Shown: piece after piece, positions 1-33,145 of the stretch | How positions within the stretch are numbered: the first letter of the stretch is position 1 | Layout of the letters: every line of letters begins with the position of its first letter | Source of the DNA: a virus | Taxonomy: Duplodnaviria > Heunggongvirae > Uroviricota > Caudoviricetes | Length of the DNA stretch: 33,145 bases | Direction: 5' to 3' (one strand) | Virus record (IMG/VR): IMGVR_UViG_2534681702_000003 | Coordinates: 1 to 33,145 of that record | Position numbers and translations under genes: made by a program | The notes under the pieces: model-generated | What the model saw: the letters and a program-made list of their open reading frames with translations, nothing else | The model's database searches: none | What the model was told of the DNA's origin: nothing

Positions 1-1119
1 TCAAATAACCAACTTAACCCATTCCTGACCTCGAGTATCGTTATAGCGGTCGGTGGTTGCTTGGACTTTATGTCCTAGTAATGTTTTTGTATCGATACCC
101 TGTGCACGGTACAGCCGTTCTGATAGAGAACGTTGTTCATGAAATGTTGGCGGAGTTTTTCCTGCTGGTGGAATTATCCCAGCCAGCTCCCGTGCTTTGG
201 CAAAGTAGTCGCTCAGGTTGTCTTTACTCATCGGCTTTGGTTGTTTCTGGTGCCGACTATGGATTAGATATGGACTTAATATTCTGTCTCGGCACCCATC
301 AATAACTTCTTTTAACGTTATCCCAATGGCATCACAGCGTAGTGTAAGCGGTAACGCCAGACGCATTCCGGTTTTTCCCTGGGTGATATGTAAGTGTTCG
401 TTCCACACATCCGAAAAACGCATGTGGCAAATGTCATCACGGCGCTGACCAGTGACAATCGCAAGAAGCATTGCGTTACGGATAAAGTGTTTTTCAGGTG
501 TTGCGTTGTATATTTTTTGCCAGTCTTCCAGGGTGAGCCTGGCTCTGGTTACTTTAGGGATCGGTTTACGGGTAGCCTCCGGAGGATTCCATCCAGGAGG
601 AACTTCCCCTGCATGCTGTGCTTCTTTATAAATATCAACCCATAATCCGCGATTTACTCTCGCTGTACTGACCATGTCTTTATCCAGCCACTCATCCAGT
701 ATTAATGCAAAGTCTCTTACTTCCAGTTCTTTCAATGGGTGGTTTCCCAGACGGGAAACCAGATATGCAGCCATTCGAGTTTTTTCTTTGTGAGTTGTAG
801 CTGCAATATCTCCATTTTTCAGTCGCGTGTCCTGTATTTTCAGATATCGATCAACCCATGCCTTTAATCTGATACCCCGACGTTTTGTTGCTGACGGACT
901 TTCATCAATTTTGCGCATGAAATATTCAGCTTCTGCTGCAGCTATTCGCTGATTGGCTGTGGAAGCGATTTTTTCTGCCTTACCTTTGTCTGTTCCGAGT
1001 CCGTGAAATTTTCCAGTCACAGGGTTTTTATACTGGTAGTAAACCTTGCCAGTTCTGCGATCAAACTTTTCGTAAAGACCGGCTACGTCAGTGCTGTTTT
1101 TTCGTGGCCTCGGTGACAT
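1..1119 (-). CDS. int: Phage integrase, tyrosine recombinase (lambda Int-like)
   Basis: 372-aa ORF; C-terminus HEQRSLSERLY...LLGHK...DRY resembles lambda Int catalytic region (HELRSLSARLY...LLGHK...YRDDRG); AAGGAG RBS 9 nt upstream of ATG at 1119; stop codon occupies bases 1-3. Confidence 0.92.
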   Translation of the reverse strand: MSPRPRKNSTDVAGLYEKFDRRTGKVYYQYKNPVTGKFHGLGTDKGKAEKIASTANQRIAAAEAEYFMRKIDESPSATKRRGIRLKAWVDRYLKIQDTRLKNGDIAATTHKEKTRMAAYLVSRLGNHPLKELEVRDFALILDEWLDKDMVSTARVNRGLWVDIYKEAQHAGEVPPGWNPPEATRKPIPKVTRARLTLEDWQKIYNATPEKHFIRNAMLLAIVTGQRRDDICHMRFSDVWNEHLHITQGKTGMRLALPLTLRCDAIGITLKEVIDGCRDRILSPYLIHSRHQKQPKPMSKDNLSDYFAKARELAGIIPPAGKTPPTFHEQRSLSERLYRAQGIDTKTLLGHKVQATTDRYNDTRGQEWVKLVI

Positions 1120-5933: not shown

Positions 5934-6014
5934 GTTGACCTCATTTCCCCTTAACGCCGGGGTAGCGGAACAAAAACCTGCTGCATAGTTATTAAAGTTG
6001 AACCCTGCCGTCAT

Positions 6015-6225
6015 GTTCTTACGCCTCGGGCTGGCTACTTAACCCCTGACCACTGCCGGGTAACTCGAAGTATTGCCCTGCATTCTGTGGGGTGGAGTGA
6101 GGGAATGAATGAAGTTTAGAAAAATGAACTTTACAGGTCAATGTTTTTTTATCAAAACATTTTAAGCAGGCAGCTGTTAAGCCATCACCACGATGGCATA
6201 CAGTTAATCAAATAGATGAGGTTGG
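6015..6225. promoter_or_regulatory. Putative leftward early promoter/operator region (pL/OL-like)
   Basis: Non-coding gap downstream of cI; contains GTTTTTTTATCAAAAC (6143-6158) sharing the GTTTT-N6-AAAAC pattern of the cI-cro intergenic sites. Confidence 0.4.
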
Positions 6226-6864
6226 TTAAATATCTTGTTGAATTTTAAAGCATACGCCCAATATGCAAGATAGATCATCCAGCATAATTGAAGGGTAGCG
6301 AGGATTCGTGGGGACTAAAAGAATATCCGGCCCTTCTATCTCCAGTTTACGAATGACAGGTGTTGTGGTCCCTTTGGGTAAGGCAAGGACAATATTTCCT
6401 GGTTGTACGGTTCGATCGGGATCAACAAAAACTGTTGAACCATTTGGGATGGAAACTCCCCCACCAGATGTTGACATACTGTCACTCTCTAGAACAACTG
6501 CAAAGGTATTGGCCGGGATTTCTCCGACAAGCTGCACACAAGAGGTTATTGAGGAATTTTTCATATAATCACTCCAGCTTGCTGCCTGCTGAAGTGATAG
6601 TAGCGGAACCGTTTTTATCGGCGGTAAAGATAGATCAAGCGAATCACCTGTATTTAACTCTCCTCCATTAAGAAGCCAATTTTCGTTTACTTTCAATATC
6701 TTTGCCAGTGAACTTATGTAACGCGAGGACGGCGCTCCTCCACCGTTCATCCATTGACTTACGGAGCCTTTTGATGCGCCAGTGGCATTGACAAGGTCTT
6801 TGCCTTTCAGGTTTAGCGCATGCATACGTTGGGTTATGCGTTCAGATATTGTTTGCTTGCTCAT
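6226..6864 (-). CDS. CI-like prophage repressor (N-terminal HTH, C-terminal S24 LexA-like peptidase)
   Basis: 212 aa; HTH LKGKDLVNATGASKGSVSQW; C-terminal ...AVVLESDSM... (GDSM-like catalytic Ser motif); divergent from cro-like gene. Confidence 0.88.
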   Translation of the reverse strand: MSKQTISERITQRMHALNLKGKDLVNATGASKGSVSQWMNGGGAPSSRYISSLAKILKVNENWLLNGGELNTGDSLDLSLPPIKTVPLLSLQQAASWSDYMKNSSITSCVQLVGEIPANTFAVVLESDSMSTSGGGVSIPNGSTVFVDPDRTVQPGNIVLALPKGTTTPVIRKLEIEGPDILLVPTNPRYPSIMLDDLSCILGVCFKIQQDI

Positions 6865-26562: not shown

Positions 26563-29532
26563 ATGGCAGTAAAGATTTCAGGTGTACTGAAAGACGGCAC
26601 AGGAAAACCAGTACAGAACTGCACAATCCAGCTGAAAGCAAAACGTAACAGCACCACGGTGGTGGTGAACACGCTGGCCTCAGAAAATCCGGATGAAGCC
26701 GGGCGTTACAGCATGGACGTTGAGTACGGTCAGTACAGCGTTATTCTGTTGGTGGACGGATTCCCGCCGTCACATGCCGGGACCATCACCGTGTATGAAG
26801 ATTCCCGACCCGGTACGCTGAATGATTTTCTCGGTGCCATGACGGAGGATGATGCCCGTCCGGAGGCACTGCGCCGTTTTGAACTGATGGTGGAAGAGGT
26901 GGCGCGTAACGCGTCCGCAGTGGCACAGAACACGGCAGCCGCGAAGAAGTCAGCCAGTGATGCCAGCACATCAGCCCGTGAGGCGGCAACCCATGCGACT
27001 GATGCTGCAGGCTCAGCACGCGCAGCCAGCACGTCAGCCGGACAGGCCGCGTCGTCGGCTCAGTCAGCGTCTTCCAGCGCAGGAACGGCATCGACAAAGG
27101 CCAGTGAAGCAGCGAAAAGTGCTGCTGCTGCAGAGTCATCAAAAAGCGCGGCAGCTACCAGCGCCAGTGCCGCGAAAACGTCAGAAACGAATGCCGCAGC
27201 ATCACAAAAATCGGCAGCCACTTCTGCATCCACAGCGACCACGAAGGCGTCAGAAGCTGCCACCTCGGCACGGGGGGCGGCGGCCTCAAAAGAGGCAGCG
27301 AAATCATCAGAAACGAATGCATCATCAAGTGCCAGTAGTGCAGCTTCCTCGGCAACGGCGGCAGGAAATTCCGCGAAGGCGGCAAAGACGTCTGAGACAA
27401 ACGCTAAGTCTTCTGAAACGGCAGCAGCACAGAGTGCCTCAGCTGCGGCAGGTTCAAAAACAGCGGCTGCATCGTCGGCCAGTGCCGCGTCAACAAGTGC
27501 CGGGCAGGCCTCAGCCAGTGCCACCGCCGCCGGAAAATCGGCAGAAAGCGCCGCATCATCCGCTTCAACAGCCACAACGAAGGCTGGCGAAGCCACTAAG
27601 CAAGCCACTGCAGCAGCGAGGTCTGCTTCTGCAGCAAAAACCTCTGAAACAAATGCAAAGACTTCAGCAGACAATGCTGCTTCCTCTAAGGCGGCAGCCG
27701 CATCGTCCGCTGGTTCAGCGGCGTCATCGGCATCATCTGCGTCTGCTTCAAAAGATGAGGCGACCAGACAAGCGTCAGCAGCGAAAGGTAGTGCCACGAC
27801 AGCAACAACGAAAGCATCAGAGGCGGCAGGCAGTGCGACGGCTGCATCTCAGAGCAAAGTTGCTGCTGAATCCGCGGCAACGCGTGCCGAAACAGCAGCA
27901 AAACGGGCAGAGGATATTGCTGATGCCGTATCTCTGGAAGATGCGAGCACGACGAAAAAAGGTGTGGTTCAGCTCAGCAGTGCGACCAACAGCACTTCCG
28001 AGTCACTGGCGGCAACACCAAAGGCAGTAAAGGCAGCATATGACCTTGCTAACGCAAAATATACCGCTCAGGATGCAACGACGGCACGAAAAGGGATAGT
28101 TCAGCTCAGTAGCGCCACTAACAGCCCGTCTGAAACGCTGGCTGCGACACCAAAAGCGGTTAAGGCGGTAATGGATGAAACGAACAAGAAAGCGCCTTTA
28201 AACAGTCCTGCGCTGACCGGAACGCCAACAACGCCAACTGCGCCAAAAGGGACTAATAATACTCAGATCGCAAGCACGGCTTATGTGATGGCCGCGATTG
28301 CCGCACTTGTAGACTCGTCGCCTGACGCACTGAATACGCTGAACGAGCTGGCGGCGGCGCTGGGAAACGACCCGAATTTTGCGACCACCATGACTAACGC
28401 GCTTGCGGGTAAGCAACCGAAAGATGCCACCCTGACGGCGCTGGCCGGGCTTGCTACTGCGGCAGACAGGTTTCCGTATTTTACGGGGAATGATGTCGCC
28501 AGCCTGGCAACCCTGACAAAAGTCGGGCGGGATATTCTTGCGAAATCGACCGTTGCCGCTGTTATCGAATACCTCGGTTTACAGGAAACGGTAAGTCAGG
28601 CTTCTGGCGCATTACAGAAAAACCAGAACGGCGCAGATATTCCAGGAAAAGATACCTTCACCAAAAATATTGGTGCCTGCCGCGCATATAGCTCATGGCT
28701 GAATATTGGTGGCGATAGTCAGGTCTGGACAACCGCGCAATTTATTTCGTGGCTGGAGAGTCAGGGGGCATTTAACCATCCTTACTGGATGTGCAAAGGC
28801 TCATGGGCTTATGCAAATAATAAGGTCATTACAGATACAGGTTGCGGAAATATTTGTCTTGCAGGTGCTGTGGTGGAAGTTATTGGCACTCGCGGCGCAA
28901 TGACCATACGCGTTACTACGCCGAGCACGTCCAGCGGTGGCGGAATTACTAACGCTCAATTCACTTATATTAATCATGGTGATGCTTACGCTCCTGGCTG
29001 GCGACGAGACTACAACACGAAAAACCAGCAGCCTGCATTTGCTTTAGGGCAAACAGGACGCAGGGTCGCAAATGATAAAGCTGTTGGCTGGAACTGGAAT
29101 AGCGGTGTTTATGATGCAGATATCAGTGGTGCATCGACATTAATCCTCCACTTCAATATGAATGCGGGGAGTTGCCCTGCTGTACAGTTCCGCGTGAATT
29201 ACAGGAACGGCGGTATTTTTTATCGTTCAGCGCGTGATGGTTATGGCTTTGAAGCTAACTGGTCAGAGTTTTACACCACAACACGCAAACCCTCTGCGGG
29301 GGATGTTGGTGCATATACGCAGGCAGAATGTAACTCAAGGTTTATTACAGGTATTCGCCTTGGCGGTCTGTCATCTGTTCAGACATGGAAAGGCCCCGGC
29401 TGGTCTGACAGGTCAGGTTATGTCGTTACGGGTTCAGTTAACGGAAACCGTGATGAATTAATTGATACAACTCAGGCAAGGCCAATTCAGTATTGCATTA
29501 ATGGGACGTGGTATAACGCGGGGAGTATTTAA
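26563..29532 (+). CDS. stf: Side tail fibre protein Stf (constant part plus current variable C-terminal part)
   Basis: N-terminus MAVKISGVLKDGTGKPVQNCTIQLKA... as recalled for lambda Stf; long Ala/Ser/Thr-rich repeat region; C-terminus ends ...RPIQYCINGTWYNAGSI. Confidence 0.9.
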   Translation: MAVKISGVLKDGTGKPVQNCTIQLKAKRNSTTVVVNTLASENPDEAGRYSMDVEYGQYSVILLVDGFPPSHAGTITVYEDSRPGTLNDFLGAMTEDDARPEALRRFELMVEEVARNASAVAQNTAAAKKSASDASTSAREAATHATDAAGSARAASTSAGQAASSAQSASSSAGTASTKASEAAKSAAAAESSKSAAATSASAAKTSETNAAASQKSAATSASTATTKASEAATSARGAAASKEAAKSSETNASSSASSAASSATAAGNSAKAAKTSETNAKSSETAAAQSASAAAGSKTAAASSASAASTSAGQASASATAAGKSAESAASSASTATTKAGEATKQATAAARSASAAKTSETNAKTSADNAASSKAAAASSAGSAASSASSASASKDEATRQASAAKGSATTATTKASEAAGSATAASQSKVAAESAATRAETAAKRAEDIADAVSLEDASTTKKGVVQLSSATNSTSESLAATPKAVKAAYDLANAKYTAQDATTARKGIVQLSSATNSPSETLAATPKAVKAVMDETNKKAPLNSPALTGTPTTPTAPKGTNNTQIASTAYVMAAIAALVDSSPDALNTLNELAAALGNDPNFATTMTNALAGKQPKDATLTALAGLATAADRFPYFTGNDVASLATLTKVGRDILAKSTVAAVIEYLGLQETVSQASGALQKNQNGADIPGKDTFTKNIGACRAYSSWLNIGGDSQVWTTAQFISWLESQGAFNHPYWMCKGSWAYANNKVITDTGCGNICLAGAVVEVIGTRGAMTIRVTTPSTSSGGGITNAQFTYINHGDAYAPGWRRDYNTKNQQPAFALGQTGRRVANDKAVGWNWNSGVYDADISGASTLILHFNMNAGSCPAVQFRVNYRNGGIFYRSARDGYGFEANWSEFYTTTRKPSAGDVGAYTQAECNSRFITGIRLGGLSSVQTWKGPGWSDRSGYVVTGSVNGNRDELIDTTQARPIQYCINGTWYNAGSI
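28562..28593. repeat. Left inverted repeat / recombination site of invertible segment (gix/cix-like)
   Basis: TTATCGAATACCTCGGTTTACAGGAAACGGTA; reverse complement of 31687-31718 differs at 2 positions; lies inside stf. Confidence 0.7.
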
Positions 29533-29534
29533 CG

Positions 29535-30068
29535 ATGATGCACTTAAAAAACATTACTGCTGGCAACCCTAAAACAAAAGAGCAATACCAGCTAACAAAG
29601 CAATTTAACATCAAATGGCTTTATTCAGATGATGGAAAAAACTGGTATGAGGAACAAAAGAATTTCCAGCCAGACACTTTGAAAATGGTCTATGACCATA
29701 ACGGCGTTATTATTTGTATTGAAAAGGATGTTTCAGCAATTAATCCAGAGGGTGCAAGCGTCGTTGAATTACCTGATATTACAGCAAATCGCCGGGCTGA
29801 TATTTCGGGGAAATGGATGTTCAAAGATGGCGTAGTGATAAAGCGAACTTATACCGAGGAAGAGCAGAGGCAACAAGCGGAAAATGAAAAGCAAAGCCTG
29901 TTGCAACTTGTCAGGGATAAAACCCAGCTATGGGACTCACAGCTACGGCTGGGCATCATTTCCGACGAGAATAAACAAAAATTAACCGAGTGGATGCTCT
30001 ATGCGCAGAAAGTCGAATCTACAGACACTTCCGGCCTGCCAGTAACGTTTCCCGAACAACCAGAATGA
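29535..30068 (+). CDS. tfa: Tail fibre assembly protein Tfa
   Basis: 177 aa; conserved Tfa N-terminus [22 protein letters not shown]... Confidence 0.85.
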   Translation: MMHLKNITAGNPKTKEQYQLTKQFNIKWLYSDDGKNWYEEQKNFQPDTLKMVYDHNGVIICIEKDVSAINPEGASVVELPDITANRRADISGKWMFKDGVVIKRTYTEEEQRQQAENEKQSLLQLVRDKTQLWDSQLRLGIISDENKQKLTEWMLYAQKVESTDTSGLPVTFPEQPE

Positions 30069-30096
30069 GAGAAGGCCCGCTATCGGGCCTTAATTT

Positions 30097-30624
30097 TTAC
30101 TCTGGTTTTTGTGGCCATTCAGGATTTGCCGTATCCACACGGCTGACCAGAACACTGTAGCGTTCCCATGCTTCCAGTCGTGTGCGTTCCTCGTCTGTTG
30201 CCATATTCAGCCTGACAGCGCGTTCCAGCGGTTGGATGACTGATTCAGCTTCGGAAAGCAATGCGGCCTTTTGTGATTCGGCCTGTTGTTGTTGCTCGTC
30301 TGCCGTATAAATCCGTTTAACCACAGCTCCGTCCCTAAACATCCACTTACCGGAATCATCAGCGCGGCGGTTGGCTGTAATATCTGGAACCTCAACGACG
30401 CTATAACCTTCAGGGTTAAGCGTGGAGGCATCTTTGGTGATGGCGACAATAATATTATTTGCATCGTAAACAATCTTTATTGTGTCTGGCTGAAAGTTTT
30501 TCACTTCCTCATACCAGTTTTTACCGTCTTCTGTATATAACCAGATAACATCAAAATTCTTTGTTAGCTGATATTGTTCTTTTGTTTTTGGATTTCCAGA
30601 CTTAATATTTTTTAAATGCTGCAT
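30097..30624 (-). CDS. Alternative tail fibre assembly protein (inverted orientation)
   Basis: 175 aa; [22 protein letters not shown]... paralogous to the plus-strand tfa. Confidence 0.8.
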
Positions 30625-30627
30625 AAA

Positions 30628-31686
30628 TTACACCTGTACGACGTTATACCATGTGCCATTGATGTATTTTTGTATTGGCCTGAAGATGGCTTCATCATCG
30701 CCATCTACTTCACCAATGATTCTTAATCCGGTAATTGCGTGTCCGGCTTTTTCATAACGACCACCACGCGCCATCAATTGAACAACACGCGTACCCAGGC
30801 GAACATCTTTCACATAGCGGGAATCAAAATTCCCCCAGTTGCTGGGCTGTATCTGACCGTTAACAGCAAATGTTACTGAGTTATCTGTATTTCGCTGACT
30901 ATAGAAATGCCAGCCTGAATCATCACCAAGCTCTGCAACAGTTGGTCTTGATGAAGTGCCCCATAAATTAAACCCTACGTTCTTCGTGGAGTTGTTGGAG
31001 CTGGATAGCGAGAATTTTTTACTATCACCTGCCTGAATGTTTTTAAAAGCAATAGCCACTCCATTCTGAAAGCGGAATACTCGCTGACTATTAGCGTAAA
31101 CATCAAGAATACCATCACCATTCTGTTTAAATCCGGTATCATTATCACCAAGAACAATTGAGTTCCCACCCAACGCGTTATTCGTGCCAAGTGCCAGCCC
31201 GCCATCAATCCTGGCACCATTACCAACAGACACAACTCCTGTTCTTAAGTTGATGTTGAATGGCCTTAATGGCCCAATATCTCCATTTTCACCCTCATTT
31301 TCTCGTGTAGGGATGATATGCAGGTGTTCTTCAGAACGGCGAAAAATAGCACCAAAGGATGAATTAAAAATCCTCAGTGCATTGACTGTCGATATTTTTA
31401 CTTCACTGCCGAAAAGGGCTTTAACAAGAACATACAAAGCACCCCATTTAAGATTCATCAGGTCTTTTGTTGTGGTGCCATGGCGGCTTCTCCATTTGAA
31501 ATATTCATTGCCGTTGTCGCCTGTTTCAAACCACATGTATGAATCAGTATCGCTGTCGGCATCATTTTTAAATCCAATCTTCGCCCAGTCAGTATTTCTA
31601 ATCCAGGCAAGGATTGAGTCGTTTGCAAAAGTAAGCCCACCGGACAAGGTATCGCCATTCTTTTGCACGGCGTTCCTGGCCCTGTT
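30628..31686 (-). CDS. Alternative Stf variable C-terminal segment (no own start; expressed only after inversion)
   Basis: Minus-strand frame opens inside right inverted repeat as ...LGLQETVNRARNAVQKNGDTLSGG..., sharing LGLQET with the stf junction; ends ...RPIQKYINGTWYNVVQV. Confidence 0.7.
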   Translation of the reverse strand, partial: NRARNAVQKNGDTLSGGLTFANDSILAWIRNTDWAKIGFKNDADSDTDSYMWFETGDNGNEYFKWRSRHGTTTKDLMNLKWGALYVLVKALFGSEVKISTVNALRIFNSSFGAIFRRSEEHLHIIPTRENEGENGDIGPLRPFNINLRTGVVSVGNGARIDGGLALGTNNALGGNSIVLGDNDTGFKQNGDGILDVYANSQRVFRFQNGVAIAFKNIQAGDSKKFSLSSSNNSTKNVGFNLWGTSSRPTVAELGDDSGWHFYSQRNTDNSVTFAVNGQIQPSNWGNFDSRYVKDVRLGTRVVQLMARGGRYEKAGHAITGLRIIGEVDGDDEAIFRPIQKYINGTWYNVVQV

Positions 31687-31718
31687 TACCGTTTCCTGTA
31701 AACCGAGGTTTTAGATAA
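31687..31718. repeat. Right inverted repeat / recombination site of invertible segment
   Basis: Reverse complement TTATCTAAAACCTCGGTTTACAGGAAACGGTA. Confidence 0.7.
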
Positions 31719-31772
31719 TGGCCGTTTCTGGCCTGCATGGCATGATTTGTGCTTTTGGACGGGAGATTCAGC

Positions 31773-32006
31773 GTGCTGATTGGCTATGTAAGGGTATCAA
31801 CAAATGACCAGAATACAGACCTGCAACGAAACGCTCTTGTTTGTGCAGGATGTGAACAAATATTTGAAGATAAATTAAGCGGAACAAGGACAGGCCGACC
31901 TGGATTAAAACGTGCTTTAAAGCGCCTTCAAAAAGGTGACGCACTAGTTGTCTGGAAACTGGACTGACTGGGTCACTGTATGCGGCATCTTGTCGTGCTG
32001 GTGGTG
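31773..32006 (+). pseudogene. pin: Decayed DNA invertase gene (Pin/Gin/Hin serine recombinase), premature stop and 3' truncation
   Basis: VLIGYVRVSTNDQNTDLQRNALVCAGCEQIFEDKLSGTRTGRPGLKRALKRLQKGDALVVWKLD then TGA at 31965-31967; pin-like codons continue to about 32006 then switch to tfa 3' sequence. Confidence 0.75.
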
Positions 32007-32099
32007 GAAGCCTGGAAAAAGTATCGGGTGTTGCTGAACCGTGTTGATACATCAACTGCACCTGATATTGAGTGGCCTACGAACCCTGTCAGGGAGTAA
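32007..32099 (+). pseudogene. tfa 3' end fragment fused to truncated pin
   Basis: Encodes [30 protein letters not shown]; about 73 bp near-identical to 33056-33128. Confidence 0.6.
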
Positions 32100-32113
32100 T
32101 CATTGGGATTATG

Positions 32114-32160
32114 CCGCAGCACGTCTTAAGCAAGAACGTGCTGCGGTTGGATGCTATTTT
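32114..32160. terminator. Hairpin, likely bidirectional terminator
   Basis: 10-bp stem CCGCAGCACG / CGTGCTGCGG with 13-nt loop, followed by TGGATGCTATTTTTT; lies between convergent genes. Confidence 0.5.
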
Positions 32161-32822
32161 TTCCCTGAAGCGGAAAACATTACTACAGTACCTTGAACCT
32201 TGGTTTTAACATTCTCGAAATGCTCTGAGAGTATATGTGTTAAGCCTTCTTCGGAATCTTTTGTGTTTGAAAAGATGCCTTTCTGATTGTAAATGCGCAT
32301 CAGTTTTTGACCGAAGCTATTGTGCACAACTCCATCGCCAAGAATTGTGGCTCCGTATAGAGTTCCATCGTCAGTTAAGGCCTGCGCAGCATTGCGTATT
32401 ACACAGCTTTTTGTAGATATATTTCCAGGCAGGCAGTGAAGAAGGTAAAACATGGAAATGGAATCAAATTGACCATGTAACGCCGCGGGATAAGGTTCAA
32501 AAACATCATGGCTAATTTTATGTTTAATTTTTGATTCCCCAGCCCTTGTAGATGCCGCGTTCAGGCTAGCTTCGTTCAAATCCATTAAAGATATCAGACT
32601 ACTCTCAGGTACGTGAGTAAGGTAAAACCCAGTTCCAACACCAATATCCAGATGGTTGTTACCTAAATGTTCCAGAAAGTGTGGAAGAAGGTGTTCCTTT
32701 GTAGGACATCCCCATGCAAGACGATTTGATACTCCCAAAACCCACCAGTCATAAAGCTTTAGGGTAAGTGGTGTGTAAATTTTAGCCCCATCATGTGTGT
32801 TTTTTTTCATTAATTTCACCAT
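32154..32822 (-). CDS. Class I SAM-dependent methyltransferase (222 aa), substrate unknown
   Basis: Motif I LDIGVGTGFY, acidic residue in LMDLNE, motif FDSISMFYLLHCLP; low-GC codon usage. Confidence 0.7.
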   Translation of the reverse strand: MVKLMKKNTHDGAKIYTPLTLKLYDWWVLGVSNRLAWGCPTKEHLLPHFLEHLGNNHLDIGVGTGFYLTHVPESSLISLMDLNEASLNAASTRAGESKIKHKISHDVFEPYPAALHGQFDSISMFYLLHCLPGNISTKSCVIRNAAQALTDDGTLYGATILGDGVVHNSFGQKLMRIYNQKGIFSNTKDSEEGLTHILSEHFENVKTKVQGTVVMFSASGKK

Positions 32823-32878
32823 GTTATAGTTTTGTTTATGAATTAAATCAATTATGGCGATGAATTACAAGGGGTTAA

Positions 32879-33145
32879 ATGCTGCCGCAGCATAGCGATA
32901 TTGAAATAGCCTGGTATGCTTCGATACAGCAGGAGCCGAATGGCTGGAAGACCGTCACCACACAGTTCTACATCCAGGAATTCAGTGAGCATATTGCGCC
33001 ACTTCAGGATGCTGTAGATCTGGAGATCGCAACGGAGGAAGAAAACTCGTTGCTGGAAGCCTGGAAGAAGTATCGGGTGTTGCTGAACCGTGTTGATACA
33101 TCAACCGCACCTGATATTGAGTGGCCGACTTCACCTGCAGAGTAA
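32879..33145 (+). pseudogene. Tail fibre assembly (tfa) 3' fragment
   Basis: 88-aa ORF ending ...[53 protein letters not shown], matching recalled lambda Tfa C-terminus; too short for a complete tfa. Confidence 0.6.

Follow-up and report, generated by a model that had tools for sequence, protein, structure and literature searches.

An intact ybcY methyltransferase gene between tfa remnants at the right-hand accessory end of a defective lambda-like prophage: a widespread module probably spread by recombination

The closest described relative of the locus analyzed here lies in the DLP12 prophage of Escherichia coli K-12, where the same gene order, tfaD - ybcY (pseudogene) - tfaX, is annotated. 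The literature that we found on ybcY and tfaX consists of promoter-mapping tables and mentions of context only. A second relative is the b region of phage lambda, in which a hairpin located 16 nt after the tfa stop codon (22573-22606) occurs again beyond ea47 (24162-24195), the two copies bracketing this AT-rich, reverse-strand gene. A third point of reference is provided by morons, which Hendrix and colleagues reportedly defined for lambda-like phages. Finally, lambda exchanges DNA with the Rac and Qin prophages through diverged stf-tfa homology, at ~2e-6 and mainly by means of Red-beta (PMC3945230).

The stretch of DNA analyzed, hereafter the window, is the 33,145-nt IMG/VR record IMGVR_UViG_2534681702_000003. 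It extends from an integrase gene (1-1119, minus strand) to tfaX and consequently represents a whole prophage. The whole stretch between gpC and the C-terminal third of gpJ is missing. An open reading frame for a gpC-like S49 protease runs directly into the C-terminal part of gpJ (23731-25831; Phage_Tail_Tip, Ig_GpJ_C), so that ~12 kb of head and tail genes are missing when compared to lambda and the prophage is defective; gpJ is full-length in strain 504838. The 1.4-kb stretch of interest is 100% identical to several ETEC chromosomes and, in strain 504838, forms part of the right end of a lambda-like prophage, with potB 232 nt away. The region is the 'b region' next to attR beside potB. With a probability of about 0.8, we read the locus as the right-hand accessory end of a defective lambda-like prophage that holds a widespread tfa'-ybcY-tfaX module spread by recombination. 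Its features are collected in Table 1.

Table 1. Features of the right-hand part of the prophage, in coordinates of the window.
Feature	Positions	Strand	Remarks
Invertible tail-fibre segment (tfa, tfa', stf')	28562-31718		3157 nt; inverted 26-nt crossover sites at 28562-28587 and 31693-31718
Dead pin (serine invertase) remnant	31749-32005	+	~86 codons; in-frame TGA at 31965-31967
pin-tfa junction	32002-32006	+	GGAA microhomology; pin homology ends and tfa homology begins
Left repeat copy	32002-32080	+	Inside the tfa remnant, which is the last ~30 codons (32010-32096)
Stop codon of left tfa remnant	32097-32099	+	
tfa-distal hairpin	32114-32146	both strands folded	CCGCAGCACGT-(11 nt)-ACGTGCTGCGG; conserved
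Class I SAM-dependent methyltransferase	32154-32822	-	222-codon ORF; intact ybcY allele; phrog_2132
Divergent spacer with methyltransferase promoter candidates	32823-32878	-	56 nt
Promoter candidate 1	32851-32823	-	TTGATT (32851-32846)-17-TATAAC (32828-32823); consensus scan
Promoter candidate 2	32878-32851	-	TTAACC-16-CATAAT; consensus scan
tfaX remnant	32879-33145	+	88 codons; right repeat copy at 33051-33129; phrog_2341

The window and DLP12 share gene order, strands, hairpin and spacer, with 97% DNA identity over 32002-33125. Three differences separate them. A 2-nt deletion frameshifts ybcY in K-12 while the methyltransferase ORF of the window is intact, the left tfa of the window is cut to ~30 codons and fused to a dead pin, and its tfaX lacks the K-12 stop codon and has another 3' end. 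The arrangement as such is already known, having been annotated in K-12 for decades, and is very common. The methyltransferase gene is found at >=95% identity in 3832 of 5426 complete E. coli genomes (~70%), with a median of one copy and a maximum of four. It is present in viable lambda-like phages and was recovered from the sequenced phages 2G7b, ev243, PhiR26_1 and PhiR68_2. Eight alleles showed 0-4 differences per pair in a pN/pS comparison, too few for dN/dS.

A reverse-strand gene for a 222-aa class I SAM methyltransferase between the repeats had been proposed by an earlier sequence-only reading, and both the ORF and a Pfam match to Methyltransf_12 (37.6 bits against a cut-off of 30, with further matches to Methyltransf_23, Methyltransf_25 and Methyltransf_11) confirm it. 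Translation probably starts at Met5 (32810) and yields a protein of 218 aa, because all homologues and phrog_2132 begin there, because a GGTGA Shine-Dalgarno-like sequence precedes this codon, and because the RpoD promoter of K-12, present in the window as candidate 1, abuts the upstream ATG. In K-12, this promoter is listed for ybcY in a genomic SELEX study of in-vitro binding by the RpoD holoenzyme, which also places an H-NS site in the ybcY/tfaX spacer (PMC3946193). The gene has 40.5% G+C compared to 49.2% for the window, but the neighbouring tfa and stf' have 42-44%. The contrast is therefore modest, and low G+C as a sharp island boundary is only partly true. Note that RefSeq places a 45-aa 'hypothetical protein' (WP_001309429.1) at 32072-32209 on the plus strand, a span that takes in the tfa stop codon and the hairpin and reaches into the 3' end of the methyltransferase gene; this is almost certainly a spurious gene call.

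The resemblance to the lambda b region resides in the succession of a tfa 3' end, a hairpin and an AT-rich reverse-strand accessory gene, with a boundary element repeated beyond it. In lambda, however, the cargo is Ea47 and the repeat is confined to the 34-nt hairpin, without the tfa 3' end. In the ompW/trpA prophages, the methyltransferase and tfaX are flanked on either side by a tfa end plus hairpin. The hairpin of the window folds with -28.5 and -25.6 kcal/mol on its two strands (z -4.3 and -4.8) and is a probable late-operon terminator. A consensus terminator scan did not call it, because the plus-strand T-run starts 9 nt past the stem and the minus strand has no T-run. The hairpin had been taken for the methyltransferase's own terminator, an assignment that fails because lambda has this conserved hairpin after its tfa and because it is also found around other cargo. 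Covariation was limited to one compensatory pair, C-G to A-U in 2 of 20 variants, in a set retrieved with a search pattern that fixed most stem positions. In the arrangements compared, the hairpin is a recurrent mosaic joint.

We scanned IMG/VR with the exact hairpin pattern, and the resulting counts apply to the matches listed and are not population frequencies. The scan recovered at least 140 copies at no fewer than 119 loci, with at least 86 copies preceded by a tfa 3' end and at least 39 followed by the methyltransferase. Among the matches listed, the 104 downstream contexts formed 24 clusters. The methyltransferase cassette accounted for 38 of them, host genes at the prophage end for 22, Rha for nine, an integrase for eight and Ea47 for three. 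The remaining 24 contexts were spread over 19 clusters with one or two contexts each, which include Avs2, PD-T4-3, PD-T7-1, an McrB-like pair, an N6 DNA methyltransferase and a diguanylate cyclase. Directly after tfa and hairpin, again among the matches listed, we found the methyltransferase, Ea47, Avs2 (E 2.5e-274), the McrB-like pair and the DNA methyltransferase. The cleanest case is strain ET846: it shares the pin'::tfa' junction exactly, its similarity to the window stops where the repeat does, at 32080, and what comes next is a diguanylate cyclase gene with a copy of the hairpin behind it. Phage Ayreon, deposited as a complete phage genome with E. coli K12 as listed host, exhibits a clean deletion of 32190-32848, which suggests that the methyltransferase gene is dispensable.

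The view of the methyltransferase as cargo was borne out by these comparisons: the gene is present in some close relatives, and lambda, ET846, Ayreon and IMG/VR loci have other cargo or none in the same slot. As in morons, it is associated with a putative promoter region of its own, a terminator-like hairpin and lower G+C, is oriented opposite to its surroundings, is apparently dispensable and is absent from otherwise similar phages. The difference is that the hairpin is common to the upstream late operon and was not brought by the cargo. The slot that follows tfa and hairpin is an accessory-gene hotspot of lambda-like prophages, and our literature search found no description of a lambda-like defence hotspot at tfa. 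The structure is a textbook case of lambda-like mosaicism and matters little as such, but the tfa 3' block with its hairpin offers a handy landmark for accessory and defence cargo in lambda-like prophages. In six other IMG/VR loci, a sequence ending in ...GGCGGGAGTTGAAA, and not tfa, lies within 30 nt before the hairpin. Downstream of hairpin copies of this GGCGGGAGTTGAAA class we found PD-T4-3, PD-T7-1, a GGDEF gene and unknown genes, and in related prophages such copies seem to be the site of a second cargo joint.

When the window was compared with other phages, left breakpoints fell at 32002, 32026 or 32114 and right breakpoints at 33103, 33125 or 33129, the homology of PhiR68_2 starting exactly at the foot of the hairpin (32114). 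Breakpoints at the tfa 3' block and hairpin uphold the earlier suggestion that the tfa 3' end is a recombination boundary. Across contexts, the methyltransferase gene retains 98.8-99.6% identity compared to 82-85% for the 3' ends of tfaX. The recombination of lambda with Rac and Qin supplies a mechanism for cassette exchange. The cassette would move between prophages by homologous recombination (Red-beta or RecA) within the tfa 3' block and hairpin, and not by transposition; the order of the recombination events would be that suggested by present-day arrangements only.

The methyltransferase family extends beyond this slot. Homologues of 56-69% identity are lone genes at unrelated chromosomal sites in Salmonella and Enterobacter, an 87% homologue is carried on a plasmid-like contig (ccdAB, KfrA) and on an IS-rich contig, and a 67% homologue belongs to another Salmonella prophage, beside its integrase. 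No neighbour gene is shared among these chromosomal, plasmid and prophage contexts, and the enzyme therefore probably acts alone. In the mechanism that we propose, it would work without a partner in the lysogen and methylate a small molecule or lipid of host or environmental origin, would have no part in virion assembly, and would normally be damped by H-NS. Two further observations concern the surroundings of the homologues. In Salmonella (L139-L141, 5001-6316), the 67% homologue adjoins a ricin-B-lectin gene near the integrase at mutS. In Enterobacter (L006-L009, gene at 6001-6657), the homologue has 39% G+C in a locus of ~50% G+C, and the family looks foreign in that chromosome too.

Most E. 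coli genomes carry a member of the family, which also occurs on plasmids and in the prophages of other enterobacteria. It is unlikely, but would be of consequence, that this uncharacterised, autonomous and mobile family gives the lysogen a phenotype that was missed since the K-12 copy is a pseudogene. Candidate phenotypes would then be phage exclusion, detoxification of toxins or xenobiotics, and N-methylation of membrane lipids. Because the K-12 copy is frameshifted, the standard laboratory strain cannot reveal the substrate. A more specific proposal, that the methyltransferase by itself constitutes an unrecognised anti-phage defence or a superinfection-exclusion factor, acting, for example, on a small-molecule signal, a receptor precursor or a component of the incoming phage, strikes us as decidedly unlikely. 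In its favour, the gene is the commonest occupant of the slot (38 of 104 contexts among the matches listed), Avs2 is found in this slot elsewhere, and PD-T4-3 and PD-T7-1 come after hairpin copies at other joints. Furthermore, the gene is mobile and autonomous and has remained intact although the head and tail genes of its prophage are gone. However, PADLOC-DB v2 returned no significant defence match (best mad2, E 0.003, 14.4 bits, generic methyltransferase fold only), the slot also holds cargo unrelated to defence (Rha, diguanylate cyclase, Ea47), and homologues occur alone in ordinary chromosomal settings.

The protein itself has the attributes of a class I enzyme. The motif DIGVGTG (residues 59-65) and residue D81 are invariant in 32 homologues and correspond to the motif I GxGxG and to the acidic residue of strand 2. 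Homologues of 56-98% identity share 60 invariant columns, which comprise the SAM motifs, and the family has the invariant motifs YDWWVL..SN..AW.C, YLLHCLPG and YN.KGIFSN..DS of its own. The structure model (pLDDT 87.7) displays the seven-stranded fold of class I methyltransferases, in agreement with the curated-profile match. That the enzyme is not a DNA methyltransferase, as the sequence-only reading had it, is corroborated: neither (D/N/S)PP(Y/F/W) nor PC and ENV with a target-recognition domain occurs in the right context, and no Pfam DNA methyltransferase family matched the protein at E<=0.01. DNA methyltransferase identity is rejected on these motifs and families. Membership tests likewise led us to reject a housekeeping enzyme, as no NCBIfam equivalog was approached; the RquA rhodoquinone methyltransferase-like family NF038261, for example, gave 16.9 bits against a cut-off of 175.

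Searches of known structures returned a broad set of relatives. The top Foldseek match in the PDB was the phosphatidylethanolamine N-methyltransferase of Rubellimicrobium thermophilum (8ys9; E 4e-11, TM 0.61/0.65, full length), with phosphoethanolamine methyltransferases and juvenile hormone acid methyltransferase also high on the list, and viral structures yielded generic methyltransferases only. A profile search of PDB sequences recovered juvenile hormone acid methyltransferase (5e-6) and UbiG (7e-4). Juvenile hormone acid methyltransferase, UbiG and PmtA share the fold and SAM-binding motifs and provide the best sequence and structure matches, but at 12-21% identity and with a family here that has its own invariant motifs. 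The predicted fold is that of a small-molecule methyltransferase. No structural match stands out and none is specific, so that the substrate class can only be guessed at; our best guess is a hydrophobic acid, an amine or a quinone-like molecule.

A PmtA-like phospholipid (phosphatidylethanolamine) N-methyltransferase that alters the membrane of the lysogen is very unlikely to be the correct assignment. The rank of 8ys9 and of the phosphoethanolamine methyltransferases is consistent with it, as are an N-terminal helix with the invariant aromatics Y24, W26, W27 and W37 and a His129 that follows strand 4. There is also a weak NCBIfam match to Legionella PmtA, but the score against PmtA NF045882 was 15.6 bits compared to a curated equivalog cut-off of 390.

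The tfaX fragment matches Pfam Caudo_TAP (PF02413) over positions 75-131 of 131 only and is Tfa-like only in residues 27-88, whereas the complete Tfa proteins of the window (29535-30068 and 30097-30624) cover positions 2-131. Neither the left fragment of ~30 codons nor the right one represents a complete tail fibre assembly protein with N-terminal fibre-binding and C-terminal domains. In tblastn searches, residues 1-26 had no match in a full-length Tfa and were seen only in records covering >=80% of tfaX. Elsewhere, tfaX bears a TGA (K-12 and PhiR68_2) or a 7-bp deletion (2G7b), and it has three unrelated 3' continuations. From these comparisons we infer that tfaX is the scar of one unequal exchange. 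It is extremely improbable that the methyltransferase and tfaX act together on the tail fibre, with Stf/Tfa being methylated and tfaX serving as a short chaperone. The two genes are always linked and divergent with 56 nt between them, the conserved Tfa C-terminal domain is kept in tfaX, and all three differences between the repeat copies are synonymous. Nevertheless, the stop, deletion and unrelated 3' ends of tfaX argue against a working chaperone, Ayreon lacks the methyltransferase, and homologues of the enzyme lie far from any tail genes. The first tfaX codons also contain a second copy (32883-32892) of the 10-mer TGCCGCAGCA, which forms the left arm of the hairpin at 32112-32121. This second copy lies inside the palindrome ATGCTGCCGCAGCAT, and GGG(A/G)TTA precedes the 10-mer at both sites (contexts 32105-32121 and 32871-32892). 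It may be what remains of a further hairpin copy on the right side of the cassette but could be chance.

The two repeat copies span 79 nt with 95% identity and a spacing of 1049 nt, and both encode the same 24-residue Tfa C-terminal stretch. Near-identical 73-nt copies encoding the Tfa C-terminus had been recognized in the sequence-only reading, which counted two mismatches; there are three, all synonymous. The left copy is 86% identical to the 3' end of lambda tfa, and its sequence constitutes the tfa 3' end in K-12, PhiR26_1 and 2G7b, the gene being full-length in K-12 and PhiR26_1. On the right, 32972-33129 matches ~158 nt at the 3' end of full-length tfa (K-12, PhiR26_1, lambda). Since full-length tfa lies just left of the cassette in K-12 and PhiR26_1, the original repeat comprised the whole conserved Tfa C-terminal domain, and the repeat in the window would be this original repeat, since shortened on its left side. 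The repeats do not qualify as an insertion signature: in K-12 and PhiR26_1, an ordinary full-length tfa ends with the left copy and the repeat measures ~158 nt, and the right copy is a decaying remnant. A target-site duplication was rejected because the repeats are 79-158 nt of gene sequence; they are best read as recombination scars in the conserved tfa 3' block. Insertion of a mobile element (a transposon or site-specific cassette) that made the repeats by target duplication would account for a lower-G+C gene flanked by direct repeats and for the 10-nt TGCCGCAGCA at both cassette ends (32112 and 32883), but is hardly credible given repeats of variable length (79 nt here, ~158 nt in K-12) homologous to a gene end, a cassette (32080-33050) without transposase, recombinase, terminal inverted repeats or short target-site duplication, and breakpoints that differ from lineage to lineage.

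The pin remnant matches Pfam Resolvase over positions 2-73 of 145 only, and the remainder of the catalytic domain is gone, as is the C-terminal HTH that complete Pin/Gin/Cin invertases possess. Up to 31963 it is ~97% identical to an intact pin; from there to ~32005 it is diverged but still pin-like in frame (14 residues of the window compared with LGRSMKHLISLVGE). The pin-tfa junction is a deletion or illegitimate-recombination joint that fuses pin codon ~86 to the last ~30 codons of tfa. An identical pin'::tfa' junction is found in 427 of the 5426 genomes and in prophages at potB, ompW/trpA and ybhB. Its presence in 427 genomes, at three attachment sites and with two cargoes indicates an old, separate deletion and not a by-product of the arrival of the methyltransferase. 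Consequently, of the earlier claim that the cargo event also destroyed pin, the destruction stands while the tie to cargo arrival does not, with the cassette in 3832 genomes, the junction in 427 and other cargo in ET846. In the spread of the module by recombination that we favour, the left tfa copy would have been cut later to ~30 codons by a microhomology deletion fusing it to pin.

The invertible tail-fibre segment left of pin is flipped in strain 504838, with 99.8% identity in the segment and 100% in its flanks, and both orientations occur in the ompW prophages (L013 compared to L014). With no working pin next to it, the segment must be inverted by another invertase of the Pin family, supplied in trans.
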